Virus record (IMG/VR): IMGVR_UViG_2703718859_000026
DNA length: 35,593 nt
Source: a virus
Lineage: Duplodnaviria; Heunggongvirae; Uroviricota; Caudoviricetes
Strand: one strand, 5' to 3'
The notes under the pieces are model-generated. The model saw only the letters and a program-made list of their open reading frames with translations. It had not been told where the DNA came from and did no database searches. Made by a program: the position numbers and the translations under genes. Every line of letters starts with the position of its first letter. Positions within the stretch are counted from its first letter, which is position 1. This document shows positions 12,831 to 19,865 of this stretch, one piece after another.

Positions 12831-13280
12831 ATGGTTACAGCGGAGTACAGAATAATGCGTGATATCCAACAGGTTCTGTCCCGATGGGGTGCATGGGTGG
12901 TAAATAATCATGAGAGTGTGGCATGGTCCGGCGTCGCTGCCGGATTTAAGGGAGTGATCCCATCAAAGGTTAAATCACGGCCTCAGTGTACCGATGATGA
13001 TGCGCTGATTATCAGCAATTGCATGGCGCAACTGAACGTCAACAACAGCGATTTGCATGATTTTCTGTATGATTATTATGTGTTCGGGATGACGCTTATG
13101 GGACTGGGCCGTAAGCATGAGCGCTCTGATTGCTGGGCCGGGCGGGTACTGCAAAAAGCTGAAGGTGTTATTGAGGGGATGTTGATTATGCAGGGAATAA
13201 AACTGGAAATGGACAGATACGTTGAGCGTGAACGATCAAGGGCACAGGTCAGTCAGTTTTCCGGACATACGGGAAATTGA
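12831..13280 (+). CDS. Q: Late-gene antiterminator Q (933W/Stx-phage type)
   Basis: [20 protein letters not shown] ... [14 protein letters not shown] ... [11 protein letters not shown] closely matches remembered Q of Stx phages; probable start ATG about 12855. Confidence 0.8.
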
Positions 13281-13304: not shown

Positions 13305-13639
13305 GACTGCGGGTGCTTGAGGGGGTCTGCCTCGGGCATGCTGCCGTAAGGCAGACGGAGAAAAGCCCCAGTTAACATTACGTGTCCTGCAAGACGCTTA
13401 ACATTAATCTGAGGCCCAATCTATGTCACACAACCGTAGGTTAGCCTCTTACGTGCCGGAAGGCAAGGAGAAGCAGTCTATGAAGCAGCAAAAGGCGATG
13501 TTAATTCGCCCTGATCGTCATCTGTTTAACCGTCATAGTGACGGCACTGGTAACGAGGAAAGACCTCTGCGAGGTACGAAATGTGTCAGGCATCCTCAAC
13601 GCACCCGTACTTTATTTGTCATATGCTCCGCAAAATGCA

Positions 13640-13671
13640 GGTTGTCGTTGCAACCCGTGCGGTAATTTTTT
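13640..13671 (+). terminator. Weak tR'-like terminator candidate
   Basis: Short stem GGTTG/CAACC followed about 10 nt later by T6; imperfect. Confidence 0.25.
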
Positions 13672-13718: not shown

Positions 13719-15800
13719 ATGCTGCCAGACCAGCGACCAGCGACCAGCGACCGTAAATCAAGAAAGTCTGTAAAATCTGTTGAACCAGACATTGCCGACC
13801 GGGCTAACAGCTGGCTCAAATCTTATGGACTTGATTACAAACTGGAGCAGGCACCACTTAACAACGAGATCGATAACGCACTGGATGCTTATTTTTCGAA
13901 AAATGGCGGCGCAGGCGGTAATCGTCCCGACGTAAAACTCCTTGTTCAGGACAAATACGGCAAGCAGTATCCCGTTCTCATCGAGTATAAAGGCTACAAG
14001 GACAGGCTTATCAGACTTGGCAGCAACGGTATTATTGAGAACAAAGATGCCAGAAAAGAATGGAATTTTAAAAATATTAATGGATACGCGGTGAATGGCG
14101 CAGTCCATTATGCCAACGCACTTCTTCAGTTCACCAATTACCCTGATATTATTGCTATTGGTATGACCGGCTGGCGCGATGATGATACAGGCGAACTGCA
14201 TCATGAAATCGGCGTGTGGTACGTATCAAAGAATAATTTAGGAGCCGGGCAGAAGGTTGGTGAATTCACCGACTTATCATTCCTTGCTGACAAAAATGTT
14301 GATGGATTTCTCAACAAGATAAAGCTGCTTAATCTTCCTCCCGAAGAACTGGAAAAAATCAAGGCCAGCAAAGAGGAAGAGATAGACACGCGACTTTCCC
14401 GTCTGAATAACGATATTTACCAGAATGAAAAGGGGCTTGGTGAAAGCGATCGTGTTTACCTTGTTGTGGCTACCGTTATTGCAACGTTGGGGATTCCGGG
14501 AAAGTTAGCACCGCTGGATAAAAAAGAACTGACCTCTTCAACGGAGGAGGACTTGCGTGATGGTGATATTATTTTCAGGAAAATAAGGAATTTTTTAAGG
14601 CTGAAAGCTGTTCCTGAAACAAAAAGAGAAATGATTTTGCGCTCGTTGCAAAATACGCTGTGGACTGAAAACATTAACAAACCAGTCAACGGTGAAAGCC
14701 AGTTAAAGCGCGTGTTTGTTAAAGTTGTTGATGATCTTGGGGAGTATTACAAAATCGGACTGACCACCGATTTTACGGGCAAACTGTTTAATGAGATGTA
14801 TCGCTGGCTTGGATTTACGCAGGACAAACTCAATGACGTCGTTCTGACACCACCTTATGTTGCCACATTGCTGGCACGACTCGCCAGAGTAAACAAAGAT
14901 TCCTATGTGTGGGATTTTGCTACAGGTTCTGCGGGATTGCTTGTGGCTGCAATGAATGAAATGCTCATTGACGCCAGAGAAAATATTCACTCACCGAATG
15001 AACTACAACTTAAGGAAGCGCAAATCAAGGCTGAACAGCTTCTTGGCCTTGAGGTGTTATCCAGTATTTATATGCTGGCCATCCTGAATATGATTTTGAT
15101 GGGGGATGGTAGCTCGAATATCCTCAATAAAGACTCGCTGGCCGATTTTGACGGCAAGTATGGATTTGGGAAAACAGGAGAAAAATTCCCTGCGGACGCA
15201 TTTATTCTCAATCCTCCGTATTCAGCTAAAGGTAACGGCATGATTTTCGTGCAGAAGGCGCTGTCGATGATGGATAAAGGCTATGCTGCAGTGATTATCC
15301 AGAGTTCAGCCGGCACAGGAAAGGCTACGGAGTACAACAAAAAAATACTCAAGGAAAATACCTTGCTGGCAAGCATCAAAATGCCTGCGGATCTGTTTAT
15401 TGGTAAATCAAGCGTTCAGACGTACATTTACGTTTTTCAGGTAAAAATTCCGCATAACGCGAAACAGGCTGTTAAGTTTATCGACTTTTCCAATGACGGC
15501 TATGCTCGCTCTAATCGCAAAAAGGCAAGAAACAATCTTGTTGATGCCGATCGTGCAAAAGAGCGTTATCAGGAGGTTGTGGATCTGGTTCACTTCGGGA
15601 AAGGTTGCCTTAATATCTTTACGGAGGATGAATATTTTGAGGGAACAATCGATCCTGATAGTGGTGAGGACTGGAATCAGACCAGGCCAGTAGATACCAG
15701 ACCGACACTGGAGGATTTTAAAAAGACGGTTGGCGACTATCTTGCGTGGGAGGTGTCAAAACTTCTTCAGGGGCGTGATGCGTCAGAAAAAAAGCAGTAA
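13719..15800 (+). CDS. Restriction-modification enzyme subunit: N-terminal PD-(D/E)xK-like nuclease motif fused to gamma-class N6-adenine DNA methyltransferase (BcgI-A / MmeI-like)
   Basis: 693 aa; NRPD71-x17-E89-Y-K91; motif I VWDFATGSAGLLVAA then motif IV FILNPPYSAKG in gamma order; AT-rich relative to flanking phage genes. Confidence 0.7.
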   Translation: MLPDQRPATSDRKSRKSVKSVEPDIADRANSWLKSYGLDYKLEQAPLNNEIDNALDAYFSKNGGAGGNRPDVKLLVQDKYGKQYPVLIEYKGYKDRLIRLGSNGIIENKDARKEWNFKNINGYAVNGAVHYANALLQFTNYPDIIAIGMTGWRDDDTGELHHEIGVWYVSKNNLGAGQKVGEFTDLSFLADKNVDGFLNKIKLLNLPPEELEKIKASKEEEIDTRLSRLNNDIYQNEKGLGESDRVYLVVATVIATLGIPGKLAPLDKKELTSSTEEDLRDGDIIFRKIRNFLRLKAVPETKREMILRSLQNTLWTENINKPVNGESQLKRVFVKVVDDLGEYYKIGLTTDFTGKLFNEMYRWLGFTQDKLNDVVLTPPYVATLLARLARVNKDSYVWDFATGSAGLLVAAMNEMLIDARENIHSPNELQLKEAQIKAEQLLGLEVLSSIYMLAILNMILMGDGSSNILNKDSLADFDGKYGFGKTGEKFPADAFILNPPYSAKGNGMIFVQKALSMMDKGYAAVIIQSSAGTGKATEYNKKILKENTLLASIKMPADLFIGKSSVQTYIYVFQVKIPHNAKQAVKFIDFSNDGYARSNRKKARNNLVDADRAKERYQEVVDLVHFGKGCLNIFTEDEYFEGTIDPDSGEDWNQTRPVDTRPTLEDFKKTVGDYLAWEVSKLLQGRDASEKKQ

Positions 15801-15834
15801 ACTCCCGTCTTGCAGAGCTTGAGCGGGAGTTTAT
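15788..15834 (+). promoter_or_regulatory. Candidate -1 programmed frameshift signal: A AAA AAG heptamer plus 10-bp stem-loop (alternatively an intrinsic terminator)
   Basis: Heptamer at the last two Lys codons of the methyltransferase ORF; stem TAAACTCCCG / CGGGAGTTTA with 16-nt loop begins about 3 nt downstream; the -1 frame is open into the next ORF. Confidence 0.4.
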
Positions 15835-15874
15835 TAAATCTGGTGGTAAATGGGAAGAATACACAATCGAAAGA

Positions 15875-16402
15875 TTGTTCAGTATTCAGACACCTAAAAA
15901 GAAATTTAATGCCAATAAATTAACATTTAATGGCAACTATCCTTATGTTGCCAGAGGAAGTAACAATAACGGCATAAAAGGATATATAGATGAAGATGAA
16001 TTATATCTCAACCCGGGGAATACAATTAGCTTTGGTCAGGATACTGCGACCATGTTCTATCAGGAAAACGCATATTTCACAGGTGATAAAATAAAGATTT
16101 TTTCTCTCAGACATGGAGAGTTAAATTCGCGAATTGCTGTTTTTCTTATATCAGCAATGAAAAAATCTTTTTCAACGTTTAGTTGGGGGAGTAGCTCTTT
16201 TAATGAGAATGTTCTCAATAAGGTAAAGATAAATATACCTACGTTTAATAATGTTCCTGCATATAATTATATGGTAAAGTATATAGAAGAGCTGGAAGCG
16301 GCCCATATAGAAGAGCTGGAAGCGGCCCATATAGAAGAGCTGGAAGCTTACTTGCTGGTTAGCGGACTCGCGGACTCGCGGACTCGCGGACTCGCGGACT
16401 GA
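15875..16402 (+). CDS. Specificity (S/B) subunit, first target-recognition domain plus repeat linker; no ATG start (track start is TTG)
   Basis: 175 aa; TRD-like segment LTFNGNYPYVARGSNNNGIKGYID; C-terminal IEELEAAH repeats; frame open upstream back to within the methyltransferase 3' end. Confidence 0.6.
   Translation: MFSIQTPKKKFNANKLTFNGNYPYVARGSNNNGIKGYIDEDELYLNPGNTISFGQDTATMFYQENAYFTGDKIKIFSLRHGELNSRIAVFLISAMKKSFSTFSWGSSSFNENVLNKVKINIPTFNNVPAYNYMVKYIEELEAAHIEELEAAHIEELEAYLLVSGLADSRTRGLAD
16281..16348 (+). repeat. 24-bp in-frame tandem repeat, about 2.8 copies (ATATAGAAGAGCTGGAAGCGGCCC), encoding (IEELEAAH)n
   Basis: Visible directly in DNA and in the translated ORF (YIEELEAAHIEELEAAHIEELEA). 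Confidence 0.9.
16362..16400 (+). repeat. 8-bp tandem repeat GCGGACTC, about 4.9 copies, at the junction of the two TRD ORFs
   Basis: AGCGGACTCGCGGACTCGCGGACTCGCGGACTCGCGGACTGA; unit length not a multiple of 3. Confidence 0.9.
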
Positions 16403-16464
16403 TAAGCTATGAGCTTACACCACAGGAATATAACGCGATTGAGCTATTAAATAGCAATAATCTT

Positions 16465-16986
16465 ATGTGGGGCACTTATAACCTCAAAAAGTTATTTGGC
16501 CCCGCAATAAGAGGTAAGCGTCTGAAAAACGCAGATCGTATACCCGGCTCCTTGCCTTTTGTTACTGCGGGTGAAGGCAATGAAGGTATTTCTGCATTTA
16601 TCAGTAATGATGTTGTTGTATTCCCTGAAAATACCATTACGATAGATATGTTTGGCTCCGCAAAATACAGAAATTATGAGTATGGTGCAGATGACCATGT
16701 GGCAGTTGTTCATACAGAATTCTTTGACAGAAATGCCGTTATTTTCATAACAGCATCAATTCATAAGTCTTCTTGTACCGGAAAGTTCAACTACGGGAGA
16801 AATTTCTATGCAAAAGATGCCGACGAGTTAATGGTATCTTTGCCGTCAAAAGATAATAACCCTGATTATTCTTTCATGGAGACGCTAATTCTAGCAGTAC
16901 ATAAACTGGTCATCAAAGATGTTGTCCAGTACACTGATAAAAAGCTGGTAGCGTACAGGCAGATTACATCTGAGAAGGTTGTTTAG
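16465..16986 (+). CDS. Specificity (S/B) subunit, second target-recognition domain, in a different frame from the first
   Basis: 173 aa; TRD-like segment RIPGSLPFVTAGEGNEGISAFIS paralogous to the first TRD; frame open upstream through the 8-bp repeats; no Shine-Dalgarno seen. Confidence 0.6.
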   Translation: MWGTYNLKKLFGPAIRGKRLKNADRIPGSLPFVTAGEGNEGISAFISNDVVVFPENTITIDMFGSAKYRNYEYGADDHVAVVHTEFFDRNAVIFITASIHKSSCTGKFNYGRNFYAKDADELMVSLPSKDNNPDYSFMETLILAVHKLVIKDVVQYTDKKLVAYRQITSEKVV

Positions 16987-17108
16987 TGCAAATCCCCACC
17001 TGACAGGGTGGGGAATGGTCAGGTTATCGTGCCCTGATGCAGAAAAACAGTTTACAATCGTAAAAATCATCATATCATGACAAAAGTGGTTACATTGCCA
17101 CGCTGCTT

Positions 17109-17133
17109 AACCCGCCGATGCGCGGGTTTTTTG
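17109..17133 (+). terminator. Rho-independent terminator
   Basis: Stem AACCCGC/GCGGGTT, 6-nt loop, T6 tail. Confidence 0.6.
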
Positions 17134-17312
17134 TATCCAGAATCCTGTAAGTTATACGGAAAGTACACAGAAAGGAAGGTGCGACCGCAATTAATAACAA
17201 AATCTTAAAAATCGCATATGGCACTATTAGTTTTCTAAATATTGTATATTTTAAGTATTGCAGGATGACCCTGTAACGAAGTTTGCGTAACAGCATTTTG
17301 CTCTACGAGTTT

Positions 17313-17342
17313 GCCAGCCTCCCCCAGTGGCTGGCTTTTTTT
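17313..17342 (+). terminator. Rho-independent terminator
   Basis: Stem GCCAGCC/GGCTGGC, 9-nt loop, T7 tail. Confidence 0.65.
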
Positions 17343-17583
17343 GTATCCGTTCAACAGGAATGTTACATACCTCACAATTAAGTCTGTTGAATGTTGTCTG
17401 CCCGGATGAGAATTTGTTAGAAAAAAACTGCATGGTGAATCCCCCTGTGCGGAGGGGCGACTGGTGAATGGTATGATCTCTTTGATGATCGTAAGCGAGA
17501 ATACGCGGGTTTGGTGGCACCAGGCCGAACTCACCGGGAGGCACCCGGCACCATGCAGTATACAGAGATTAGGCATATATCAG

Positions 17584-17608
17584 GGCCCCTCATAGCAGGG
17601 GCCTTTTT
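17584..17608 (+). terminator. Rho-independent terminator
   Basis: Stem GGCCCCT/AGGGGCC, 6-nt loop, T5 tail. Confidence 0.6.
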
Positions 17609-17825
17609 ACATGCAAAAAAAAGCCGCCCCGGGAAGAGCGGTTGGCAAGAAGAAAAGCAATATGAACAATTAATTAACGCTGCGAATAATACCTTACAGT
17701 AATCACCCTGCGCAACTGTGAGGAGTGTATTTCTTTTTTGCGGGTGGTTGTCTTTTTCCCTTGTGTTTCGGGACTTCCGCTCACTCCTTATCTTATTCAG
17801 TACATTATCCCGGCCGGGAGGATTC

Positions 17826-19865
17826 ATGGCATTTAAACACTATGACGTGGTCAGGGCGGCGTCGCCGTCAGACCTTGCGGAACGAATAACTCAAAAACTG
17901 AAGGAAGGGTGGCAGCCTTATGGTAGTGCGCTGATTTCGACAGCTGGTTATGGTGCGGAGTTCATCCAGCCAGTTGTGAGTGAGGGGAGCATCTCATCAC
18001 CAGAGGAGCCAGGCAACCGTCCGACGACCTCAGCGCCTTCTGTTGCGCCAGAATATTACTATGTGATCGCGCTTGCTGGTCAGTCCAATGGTATGTCATA
18101 CGGTGAGGGACTGCCATTACCGGATACATTCGACAGCCCTGATCCACGTATTAAACAGTTAGCGCGTCGCAGTACGGTGACACCGGGCGGCGCTGCATGT
18201 ACCTATAACGATATTATTCCGGCAGATCACTGTCTCCATGATGTACAGGATATGAGCAGCCTTCATCATCCGAACGCCGATCTGTCAAAAGGTCAGTATG
18301 GCTGCGTCGGACAGGGTTTACATATCGCCAAAAAATTACTGGCGTTTATCCCGAAAAATGCCGGAATCCTTCTGGTACCTTGCTGTCGTGGAGGGTCAGC
18401 ATTTACTTCCGGCGCTGAGGGGGCATTCAGTGAATCGTCAGGAGCGACGGCCGAATCATCCCTGTGGGGTGTCGGCAAGCCGCTGTACAACGATCTGCTT
18501 ACCCGTACAAAAGCCGCGCTGGATAAAAACCCCAAAAACGTCCTGTTATCCGTGGTCTGGATGCTGGGAGAGTTTGATCTGAAGTCAGCAACATACGCAC
18601 AGCACCCGCAATTATTCCTGAACATGGTGAATCAGTTCCGCGCCGATCTCAGCGCATATTCTTCACAGTGCACCGGAGGCAATGCATCATTTGTTCCCTG
18701 GATTTGCGGCGATACCACCTATCTCTGGAAACAAAAATATACCTCTCAGTACCCGGTGGTTTACGGTGCATATCAGAACAAAGAAGCGCAAAAAATTTAT
18801 TTTGTGCCCCTGATGACCGATGAGAAAGGTACTAACACGCCAACAAACCTGCCTGCCGAAGATCCTGATCTGGCAGAAGCCGGTTATTACGGTGCTGCAT
18901 CCCGCAGTAATGGAAACTGGACCTCTTCAGATCGCGCCACGCATTTCAGTTCATGGGCCCGTCGCGGCATTGTTTCTGACCGTCTGGCAACGGCGATCCT
19001 GATGCATGCAGGGAAGACAGCCGCCTTCCTGAAAGGCACACCCGCACCGTTCAGCGTGGTCGTAGCGCCTCCCGCCACGGCAGGTTCAGACAGCGCCACC
19101 ACGGAAAGCCCGCAGCCCTCCACATCTGCACCTCAGCCGGGCGCAGGCACACAGCCATCACCGGAAGTTCCACCGGCAACTGAAACACCGGCAAGAACAA
19201 CTGCCGTCGCTTATCGTGCAGATACACAGGAAGGGAAACTGAAAGAACAGGGCTGGACGGGGGCAGACGGAAAAGCCTCTGTCGTAGATGATTCTGCTGC
19301 TGAGAGCGGTAAAGCCATGCGAGTGGAAAAAGTCCAGGGGCAACAAACAGCCTGGAAAATTGCCCACGATGTGCCTGCAAGTAAAGCAGCTGAATTACTT
19401 CAGAGAGGCGGTGAAATTGCCTTCCGTTTCAAAATTCCCGAAGGTGTTCAGCTGGCAACAAACCGCTTCGCCATGGCCCTGTACTGGCCTGTTTCTCAGC
19501 TACCTGAAAACGTTGTTCTGGAAGGCAGCGCAGGAAACGATATGCTGGCCGCCTTCTTCATCCAGAGCGACAGCGCAAACCTGAATCTGATGCAGCACAA
19601 ACAACAGAATGCAAAACTGGGAACCTTCGGGGCATTTAATCATAACTGGCACAACGTGGTGTTCAGGTTTGCCGGCAATAACAGCATCAGCGTGACACCG
19701 GTCATCAACGGTCAGACCCAGGCGGCCTTTAATCTGGCGAAATGCCCGGCGGCAGGACTGGATAACGACAAGCTGTTACTCACTGACATTACCAGTAACC
19801 AGGATACCTACCCGGTTCTGATTGAGCACGTAACAGTGGCAATCAATAACAGCAACGCCGCATAA
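17826..19865 (+). CDS. nanS-p: Prophage-encoded 9-O-acetyl sialic acid esterase NanS-p (DUF1737 N-terminus plus SGNH/SASA hydrolase domain)
   Basis: MAFKHYDVVRAASPSDLAERITQKLKEGWQPYG N-terminus and GQSN motif (YYYVIALAGQSNGMSYGEG); GGGAGG Shine-Dalgarno before ATG 17826; track start 17718 is an upstream non-ATG extension. Confidence 0.8.
   Translation: MAFKHYDVVRAASPSDLAERITQKLKEGWQPYGSALISTAGYGAEFIQPVVSEGSISSPEEPGNRPTTSAPSVAPEYYYVIALAGQSNGMSYGEGLPLPDTFDSPDPRIKQLARRSTVTPGGAACTYNDIIPADHCLHDVQDMSSLHHPNADLSKGQYGCVGQGLHIAKKLLAFIPKNAGILLVPCCRGGSAFTSGAEGAFSESSGATAESSLWGVGKPLYNDLLTRTKAALDKNPKNVLLSVVWMLGEFDLKSATYAQHPQLFLNMVNQFRADLSAYSSQCTGGNASFVPWICGDTTYLWKQKYTSQYPVVYGAYQNKEAQKIYFVPLMTDEKGTNTPTNLPAEDPDLAEAGYYGAASRSNGNWTSSDRATHFSSWARRGIVSDRLATAILMHAGKTAAFLKGTPAPFSVVVAPPATAGSDSATTESPQPSTSAPQPGAGTQPSPEVPPATETPARTTAVAYRADTQEGKLKEQGWTGADGKASVVDDSAAESGKAMRVEKVQGQQTAWKIAHDVPASKAAELLQRGGEIAFRFKIPEGVQLATNRFAMALYWPVSQLPENVVLEGSAGNDMLAAFFIQSDSANLNLMQHKQQNAKLGTFGAFNHNWHNVVFRFAGNNSISVTPVINGQTQAAFNLAKCPAAGLDNDKLLLTDITSNQDTYPVLIEHVTVAINNSNAA

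Follow-up and report, generated by a model that had tools for sequence, protein, structure and literature searches.

A probable programmed -1 ribosomal frameshift cassette joining the RM and S genes of a BcgI-like Type IIB restriction-modification system in an Escherichia coli prophage

How is the specificity subunit of a restriction-modification system made when its gene has no initiation site of its own? This question is raised by a locus in a 35,593-nucleotide (nt) stretch of DNA (IMG/VR record IMGVR_UViG_2703718859_000026), hereafter the window, a lambdoid (Stx-type) prophage of E. coli. At this locus lie a gene for a nuclease-methyltransferase (RM) and, in the -1 frame relative to it, a specificity (S) gene encoding target recognition domains (TRDs); judged by sequence, the two form a BcgI-like Type IIB system of the RM + S kind. 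A first-pass annotation had read the junction of the two genes as a candidate programmed -1 frameshift, with an A7-to-A8 phase switch or an intrinsic terminator as alternatives. We conclude that the RM/S junction is very probably a -1 programmed ribosomal frameshift cassette. The heptamer conserved in phase, the -1-frame S that often has no start codon, and the downstream hairpin with compensated changes all support this reading, and the signal, its phase, its conservation and the covariation are apparent when the sequences of about 100 relatives are compared.

In the window, the RM ORF (open reading frame) ends in GAA AAA AAG CAG TAA, which places A_AAA_AAG in the zero frame, as the first-pass annotation had said (Table 1). 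A run of seven A occupies 15787-15793. By itself, the heptamer is not significant, the window having 20 copies of AAAAAAG where 9 are expected; its significance comes from its phase, from its position at the stop codon, and from its conservation in relatives. The perfect 10-bp stem with a 16-nt loop described just past the heptamer was also found as claimed. The arms TAAACTCCCG and CGGGAGTTTA at 15798-15807 and 15824-15833 are 100% complementary, the RNA folds with -20.3 kcal/mol (z = -4.8), and none of 200 shuffled sequences folds as well. A search of 15600-16000 against Rfam gave no family at E <= 1, the dnaX frameshift-element family included.

The -1 frame is indeed open from 15779, and its first ATG, GTG or TTG is the TTG at 15875. 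The match of this frame to Pfam Methylase_S (E = 1e-22) begins at about 15848, upstream of that codon. By conceptual translation, a -1 slip would give a product of 692 + 202 = 894 amino acids (aa), which agrees with the chain of about 900 aa, comprising nuclease, methyltransferase and TRD, that had been predicted.

Table 1. Positions of the features of the RM/S locus in the window
Feature	Position	Strand	Evidence
RM gene, Type IIB (BcgI-like) nuclease-methyltransferase, zero-frame product	13719..15800	+	ORF list, 693 aa, Pfam, motifs
7-nt tandem repeat (GACCAGC)x3.6, right after the RM start codon	13728..13752	+	Tandem Repeats Finder (TRF)
Slippery heptamer A_AAA_AAG, zero-frame X_XXY_YYZ phase	15788..15794	+	Sequence; homologous position in relatives also slippery
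-1-frame continuation: linker AVNSRLAELEREFIKSGG, TRD1, first conserved S helix (predicted)	15794..16402	+	Translation, 202 codons + TGA
Candidate stimulatory RNA hairpin	15796..15835	+	Arms 15798-15807 / 15824-15833, fold energy, equivalents in relatives
RM zero-frame stop TAA, one codon past the heptamer, also base of the hairpin	15798..15800	+	Sequence
24-nt repeat x2.8, ELEAAHIE units, central conserved S helix	16281..16347	+	TRF
8-nt tandem repeat (GCGGACTC)x4.9, breaks S between TRD1 and TRD2	16362..16400	+	TRF
TRD2 and second conserved S region, third frame	16399..16986	+	ORF from ATG 16465, 173 aa
Terminator-like hairpin with T run, 3' of S	17109..17128	+	Terminator scan

For comparison, we extracted the junctions of 80 species-representative genomes, 27 full-length phage contigs, about 20 E. 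coli and Salmonella loci, contigs of Neisseria, Providencia and Methylophilaceae, and five distant relatives with 40-47% identity. The RM family is highly mobile; its members share about 70% identity across Firmicutes, Bacteroidota, Proteobacteria, Spirochaetes, Gracilibacteria and other groups. An in-phase heptamer ends RM in 78 of the 80 species-level loci (G_GGA_AAA in 48, G_GGA_AAG in 27 and A_AAA_AAA in 3), and all 27 phage contigs with a full-length locus have one. The stop codon directly abuts the heptamer in 76 of the 78 heptamer-bearing species-level loci. The window belongs to a clade with A_AAA_AAG followed by one codon and the stop, together with L003/L108, Salmonella L105 and several phage contigs.

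Codon choice at the heptamer differs from that of the genes around it. GGA is always preceded by a codon with G in third position (CTG, TTG, TCG, GAG or GCG), and AAA AAA by CTA, while G-ending Leu codons make up just 31% of the Leu codons in the same genes. The Gly codon is GGA in 72 of 72 cases, compared with 28% GGA usage in the same genes. Synonymous positions at the heptamer are thus 100% fixed against a background usage of 28-31%. The change from GGG to AAA as a block evidently keeps slipperiness and not the amino acid.

At every heptamer-bearing locus, S lies in the -1 frame, and its ORF in this frame is at least 330 aa long in 65 of 76 loci. No ATG, GTG or TTG is present between the upstream -1 stop and a conserved V(E/K)W motif in 38 of the 76, and 8 further loci have candidate starts solely deep inside RM. 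The S-frame codon at the junction is ATA in 43, GTA in 24 and ATG in 8 of 75 aligned loci. The Prokaryotic Genome Annotation Pipeline (PGAP) and other pipelines label S as 'missing N-terminus' or assign it an ATT, CTG, ATA or truncating TTG start. Other candidate starts were considered and rejected: the ATG right after the stop in many relatives (TAG ATG CC...) belongs to the zero frame, where it starts an ORF of just 7 codons and not S, and the TTG and ATG at +17 and +20 correspond to a conserved Leu codon and to the variable codon beside it, unconserved as starts. In 31 of 75 loci, an element resembling a Shine-Dalgarno (SD) sequence, GAGG or GGAGG, precedes the heptamer by 10 nt (alignment A2 columns 9-13). 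The window has only a weak GGGG as such an element, 14 nt upstream of its heptamer (15770-15773).

The hairpin could be followed through a gap-free alignment of 75 junctions. The family stem has 12 bp and begins 5 nt past the heptamer. Within the stem, 96.3% of cells are paired, compared with 34-48% when the partners are slid, and none of 500 shuffles reaches the observed score. Double changes are seen at five stem pairs. For example, pair 44-66 is UA in 29 loci, CG in 25, UG in 15 and GC in 1, and never C-A; here a synonymous Leu-codon change and a K/E/Q change lying 22 nt apart covary. RNAalifold independently recovers the same stem. Its 3' arm encodes the VEWG motif, and clades with other N-terminal sequences of S have hairpins of quite different sequence in the same place. 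The downstream hairpin is therefore, to all appearances, kept by compensatory changes and has been re-invented with different sequences. Hairpin energies were -20.6 kcal/mol in Salmonella L105, -19.0 kcal/mol in Neisseria L056, -24.5 kcal/mol in L102 and -20.0 kcal/mol in L143. E. coli L101 differs from the window by a single C-to-T in the 5' arm, which leaves a U.G pair.

Some relatives serve as natural controls. L055 and L093, the only two species-level loci that lack the heptamer, are in-frame fusions of RM with half of S, carrying a single TRD. The fusions lie at about 2266-2809 in L055 and at about 4519-5074 in L093, with the heptamer replaced. These two loci keep VEWGEY and VKWGEY, and their homologous 47 nt fold with -1.7 and -5.2 kcal/mol, respectively; the same segment in the 75 frameshift-type loci folds with -19.3 +/- 2.3 kcal/mol. 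The hairpin has decayed in these in-frame fusions. Distant relatives with an SD sequence and an ATG have neither heptamer nor hairpin, as in L104 (GGAGG-N8-ATG) and L144 (GGGAGA, TAATG overlap). Across the sequences compared, the signal is mutually exclusive with in-frame fusion and with SD plus ATG. The superfamily comprises RM proteins of about 680 aa, RM-half-S proteins of about 860-890 aa and RM-S proteins of about 1050-1190 aa, the last two in-frame (natural in-frame RM-S or RM-half-S relatives are L055, L093, P0122, P0130, P0147 and P0150). Covalent RM-S is thus a proven architecture.

Because S has no initiation site of its own, we propose frameshifting as the route of its expression. 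Most ribosomes would read GAA AAA AAG CAG TAA and release the 693-aa RM. A fraction would pause at the downstream hairpin with tRNA-Lys on AAA and AAG, slip back one base on A_AAA_AAG, and go on in the -1 frame; in most relatives, the slipping tRNAs would be tRNA-Gly and tRNA-Lys. The adjacent or near-adjacent stop codon may provide a second chance, by P-site slippage on A_AAR during slow termination; the 'shifty stop' idea is reportedly that of Weiss et al. 1987. The outcome would be a covalent RM-S fusion, of 894 aa with one TRD in the present state of the window, or of 1086 aa with two TRDs if the 8-nt repeat had one unit fewer. We infer both that slippage occurs and how frequent it is. The six best of the 64 -1 heptamers measured in E. 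coli include all four used in this family, and these four give 17-43% frameshifting in E. coli with the IS3 pseudoknot, a strong stimulator (PMC4066793 Table S3). G_GGA_AAG has been called highly shift-prone (PMC5009743).

The RM protein supports the assignment of the system to Type IIB. It matches Pfam N6_Mtase with E = 5e-21, and VRR_NUC weakly, below the cutoff of that family. Its motifs PD70..E89-x-K91, DFATGSAG399 (motif I) and NPPY498 are invariant across homologues. A PD-(D/E)xK nuclease and a gamma-type N6-adenine methyltransferase (NPPY) are thus present on one polypeptide, as is characteristic of Type IIB. The PhiR12_3 phage record labels RM 'restriction enzyme BcgI alpha chain-like'. 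In phmmer searches of RM against PDB chain sequences, no match with E <= 0.001 was found, and likeness to the BsaXI chains went undetected; an NCBIfam search returned merely weak similarity to hsdM and MAD2, under the curated cutoffs. The likeness to MmeI drawn by the first-pass annotation holds for the size of the fused chain and not for the type of enzyme, the system being BcgI-like Type IIB.

The composition of such enzymes suggests what the fusion might be for. BcgI is A2B and BsaXI is (RM)2S (PMC3592466, PMC11997821), so an output of free RM and RM-S at roughly 1:1, which would give the composition (RM)2S, would suit this type of enzyme. This composition and cleavage to either side of a bipartite site are biochemical properties known from BcgI and BsaXI only. 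Engineered M-S and M-half-S fusions of EcoKI are active, and M-S requires extra free M (PMC3510504, PMC6158711). The complete in-frame fusion of the half-S relatives fits their need for RM and TRD at 1:1. We infer that a fixed RM:S ratio is the purpose of the signal; a stoichiometric role, 2 RM to 1 S, would fit the data better than a tuning of restriction against modification.

Several observations weigh against frameshifting. In the window, only 1-3 nt separate the heptamer from the stem, where 5-9 nt would be usual; measured to the G+C-rich core of this hairpin, the distance is 7-8 nt. The four heptamers slip just 0.1-0.5% in E. coli when a strong stimulator is missing (PMC4066793). BcgI and BsaXI work with separately made S subunits, and 30 of the 76 loci have a canonical start codon near the N-terminus of S, which in 9 of them is an ATG overlapping TGA. 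Some members of the family may therefore initiate S separately, and that arrangement may be the ancestral one. Two phage contigs, L106 and L107, retain the A_AAG tetramer alone, and L142 has the -1 arrangement and a hairpin but no canonical heptamer. The fusion predicted for the window would also carry, in the present repeat state, only one TRD.

These exceptional loci have further features. In L106 (3440-3520) and L107, RM is 86% identical to that of the window, the junction reads CCA GTA AAG TAA, a hairpin persists (-19.5 kcal/mol), and S once more falls into two ORFs, of 200 aa and 173 aa. In L142 (2190-2340; 44% identity), the -1-frame S has no start codon, the junction reads GAT TTT CTG TAA with just U_UUU, and the hairpin has -24.3 kcal/mol.

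Three other explanations can be set beside frameshifting. It is unlikely, in our judgement, that S is a separate protein made by translational coupling, in which ribosomes would re-initiate at a non-canonical codon, either ATT 15833 or the ATA, GTA or ATG at the junction of relatives, with the hairpin masking the site until the preceding ribosome unfolds it. Such coupling has precedents: hsdM and hsdS of EcoKI are coupled through a 1-nt overlap (PMC3510504), L144 uses a TAATG overlap, and 8 of the 75 aligned loci (9 of 76 in the start-codon tally) have an ATG overlapping TGA in the classic ATGA arrangement. PGAP sets the start of S at ATT 15833 in one E. coli genome, and GGGAG, part of the hairpin 3' arm, lies 3 nt upstream of this codon. 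We rejected ATT 15833 with GGGAG as the S start, as the codon is unconserved in the nearest clades (GAA in L003/L108 and GTA in Salmonella L105); the 3-nt spacing is also too short for an SD sequence. The junction codon is ATA or GTA in 67 of the 75 aligned loci, leaving merely 11% with ATG, and no locus with G as the last base (Z) of the heptamer has the TGA that would make a GTG start. Coupling leaves unexplained why the codon before GGA or AAA always has X at its synonymous third position and why GGG changes to AAA as a block, and the relatives with a true SD sequence and ATG are those without heptamer and hairpin.

Somewhat less probable still is that the A7 run acts at the level of nucleic acid, through replication slippage from A7 to A8 as a heritable switch or through slippage of RNA polymerase, either of which would insert an A in some genomes or transcripts and yield the fusion with no slip by the ribosome. 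The run is of seven consecutive A, the locus shows repeat-mediated phase variation at two other places, and AAAAAAA is under-represented in E. coli genes, possibly through transcriptional slippage (PMC4066793). However, A7 recurs without exception, in 10 of 10 E. coli genomes of the window type and in 4 of 4 close phage contigs, while the neighbouring 7-nt and 8-nt repeats vary between 3-120 and 4-16 copies, so the phase switch suggested by the first-pass annotation found no support. A6 in L124 and A8 in Salmonella L105 arose by substitutions, with the frame relation unchanged. Most of the family has GGGAAAA or GGGAAAG, whose runs of 3-4 nt are not prone to polymerase slippage, and the conserved structure downstream of the site resembles stimulators acting on ribosomes. 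We give the least credence of all to the view that nothing is programmed here, the hairpin being a terminator or attenuator and S a decaying remnant, unexpressed or poorly expressed in this prophage, even though the 8-nt repeat splits S in the window, some relatives have truncated S ORFs, and one E. coli copy carries an inserted IS1. The terminator scan did not call the hairpin, which has a 16-nt loop and a tail TTAAATCT with no U tract. In relatives, the hairpin has no U run and lies within conserved coding sequence, the signal is conserved across phyla, and the long S ORF is retained in the -1 frame, so the terminator reading that had been offered as an alternative does not hold.

The frameshift cassette is flanked by repeats that vary in number among strains; the first-pass annotation was silent both on the 8-nt repeat that splits S (16362-16400) and on the 7-nt repeat just past the RM start (13728-13752). 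The 7-nt repeat is a putative phase-variation tract for RM expression. It has 3 full copies in the window, where it is in the ON frame, and 16-120 copies in other E. coli, for an overall range of 3-120. Since the number of units varies, RM is expected to be in frame in about a third of the states. Loci with this repeat are L001-L004, L095-L101 and L109-L113. In expanded arrays, PGAP places a 'YXWGXW repeat-containing protein' on the minus strand and starts RM internally, giving it 569 aa; this shortened RM would be without the nuclease motif. The 24-nt repeat has one or two full units in relatives and, by analogy with Type I enzymes, its unit number might alter the length of the spacer within the recognition site.

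The 8-nt repeat determines the form of S. In the window, both TRDs are present and are put in different frames by this repeat; the TRD2 segment has no Pfam match. The -1 frame halts after TRD1 and the helix (...ELEAYLLVSGLADSRTRGLAD*), and hence the predicted fusion has 894 aa; its end coincides with that of the natural RM-half-S fusions L055 and L093. By conceptual translation, one unit fewer joins the frames and gives an S part of 394 aa and an RM-TRD1-TRD2 chain of 1086 aa. Relatives have 4-16 copies, and the E. coli loci with 6 copies are annotated with a full S of 375-381 aa; S is full-length solely at unit numbers divisible by 3. The 8-nt repeat is probably a switch between a one-TRD form, with a palindromic site, and a two-TRD form, with an asymmetric site. 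Truncated S ORFs were seen in L023, L033, L040 and L092.

Frameshift signals of this kind are known from other genes. The E. coli dnaX gene (tau/gamma) has a heptamer identical to that of the window, and both have a downstream hairpin and a nearby stop. As proposed for RM/S, dnaX makes two products from one gene in a set ratio for a multi-subunit complex, and the 10-nt upstream SD-like spacing that stimulates dnaX frameshifting is the same as that in the 31 RM/S loci mentioned above. The gene families are unrelated, and the dnaX frameshift product is the shorter protein, whereas that of RM/S would be the longer one and join two different subunits. Closer in this respect are OrfAB of IS3 and IS911 and G/GT of lambda, in which a -1 slip on A_AAA_AAG, A_AAG or G_GGA_AAG near the end of ORF1 fuses it to a startless second part, with a hairpin or pseudoknot as stimulator and in the setting of a mobile element or phage, all as proposed for RM/S. 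The lambda G/GT site is reportedly G_GGA_AAG (Levin, Hendrix and Casjens 1993). RM/S differs from these in that its products are restriction-modification subunits and that the zero-frame stop abuts the heptamer in most members.

Among restriction enzymes, BcgI and BsaXI resemble the window system in that one chain unites a PD-ExK nuclease, at its N-terminus, with an N6-adenine methyltransferase; their Type-I-like S has two TRDs (PMC3592466, PMC11997821), which the window also encodes, in different frames. Their S is described as independently translated, whereas that of the window has no start of its own and would be reached by frameshifting. In single-chain RMS Type IIB enzymes and in the EcoKI fusions, S is tethered to the C-terminus of the methyltransferase by a flexible linker, as predicted here; those proteins are 100% fused, while the partial fusion predicted for RM/S would leave free RM. 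The 7-nt and 8-nt repeats of the window recall the repeat-driven variation of Type III mod phasevarions and of the poly-G tract of NgoAV hsdS, and the truncated single-TRD S of NgoAV resembles that of the window (cited in PMC6158711). Those switches are mutational, in contrast to the A7 junction, which is invariant and behaves as a translational signal.

We found no report of such a signal in full-text literature searches that combined frameshifting with Type IIB, BcgI, hsdS, specificity subunit or restriction-modification, and neither a large 2016 recoding review nor the GeneTack survey lists a frameshift between the RM and S genes of any restriction-modification system. As a mechanism, this is classical. 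What appears new is the gene family concerned, the role in joining subunits and how widely the signal is conserved. We think it somewhat better than an even chance that the locus represents an ancient cassette, shared across phyla, that forms a third Type IIB architecture between 'RM + S' and 'RMS', in which one mRNA would give RM and RM-S at a ratio that builds (RM)2S, and that in lambdoid or Stx-type prophages of E. coli it is stacked with a 7-nt switch gating RM and an 8-nt switch choosing between one-TRD and two-TRD fusions. If so, one locus could yield no enzyme, an enzyme specific for a palindrome, or an enzyme specific for an asymmetric site, and a complex with RM and S at 2:1 would have a simple route from one transcript. 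Within the literature searched, it would be the first programmed frameshift reported for a restriction-modification system, and it would join the few bacterial frameshifts outside mobile elements and dnaX that are conserved across phyla. It would account for the 'missing N-terminus' labels and the ATT, CTG or truncating TTG starts given to S genes of this widespread family, and would correct hundreds of these annotations, REBASE-style predictions too. The in-frame fusions and the SD-plus-ATG relatives are natural controls at hand. For Stx-type prophages, the proposal bears on phase-variable methylation specificity and on phage-encoded defence.

In the window, the RM/S locus lies 3' of the Q antiterminator gene (12831-13280) and a hok/gef gene, and 5' of a NanS-p-like esterase gene (17718-19865). 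The operon probably ends at the terminator-like hairpin 3' of S. The hok/gef toxin gene upstream of RM (window 13423-13665 region; L002 1289-1445) is annotated as frameshifted in several E. coli genomes. The module of the window is 100% identical to that of strain 04-00955 (window 16900-17800 and L002 5342-6592 compared), with 3 units of the 7-nt repeat in the window and 16 in that strain. In strain 04-00955, tRNA genes and stx2b follow S; they are absent from the window. As the modules are identical and their surroundings differ, the same RM module is present in different lambdoid prophages. In E. coli 2015C-3121, IS1A is inserted near the S start, just past the RM stop (L099 3202-3899).

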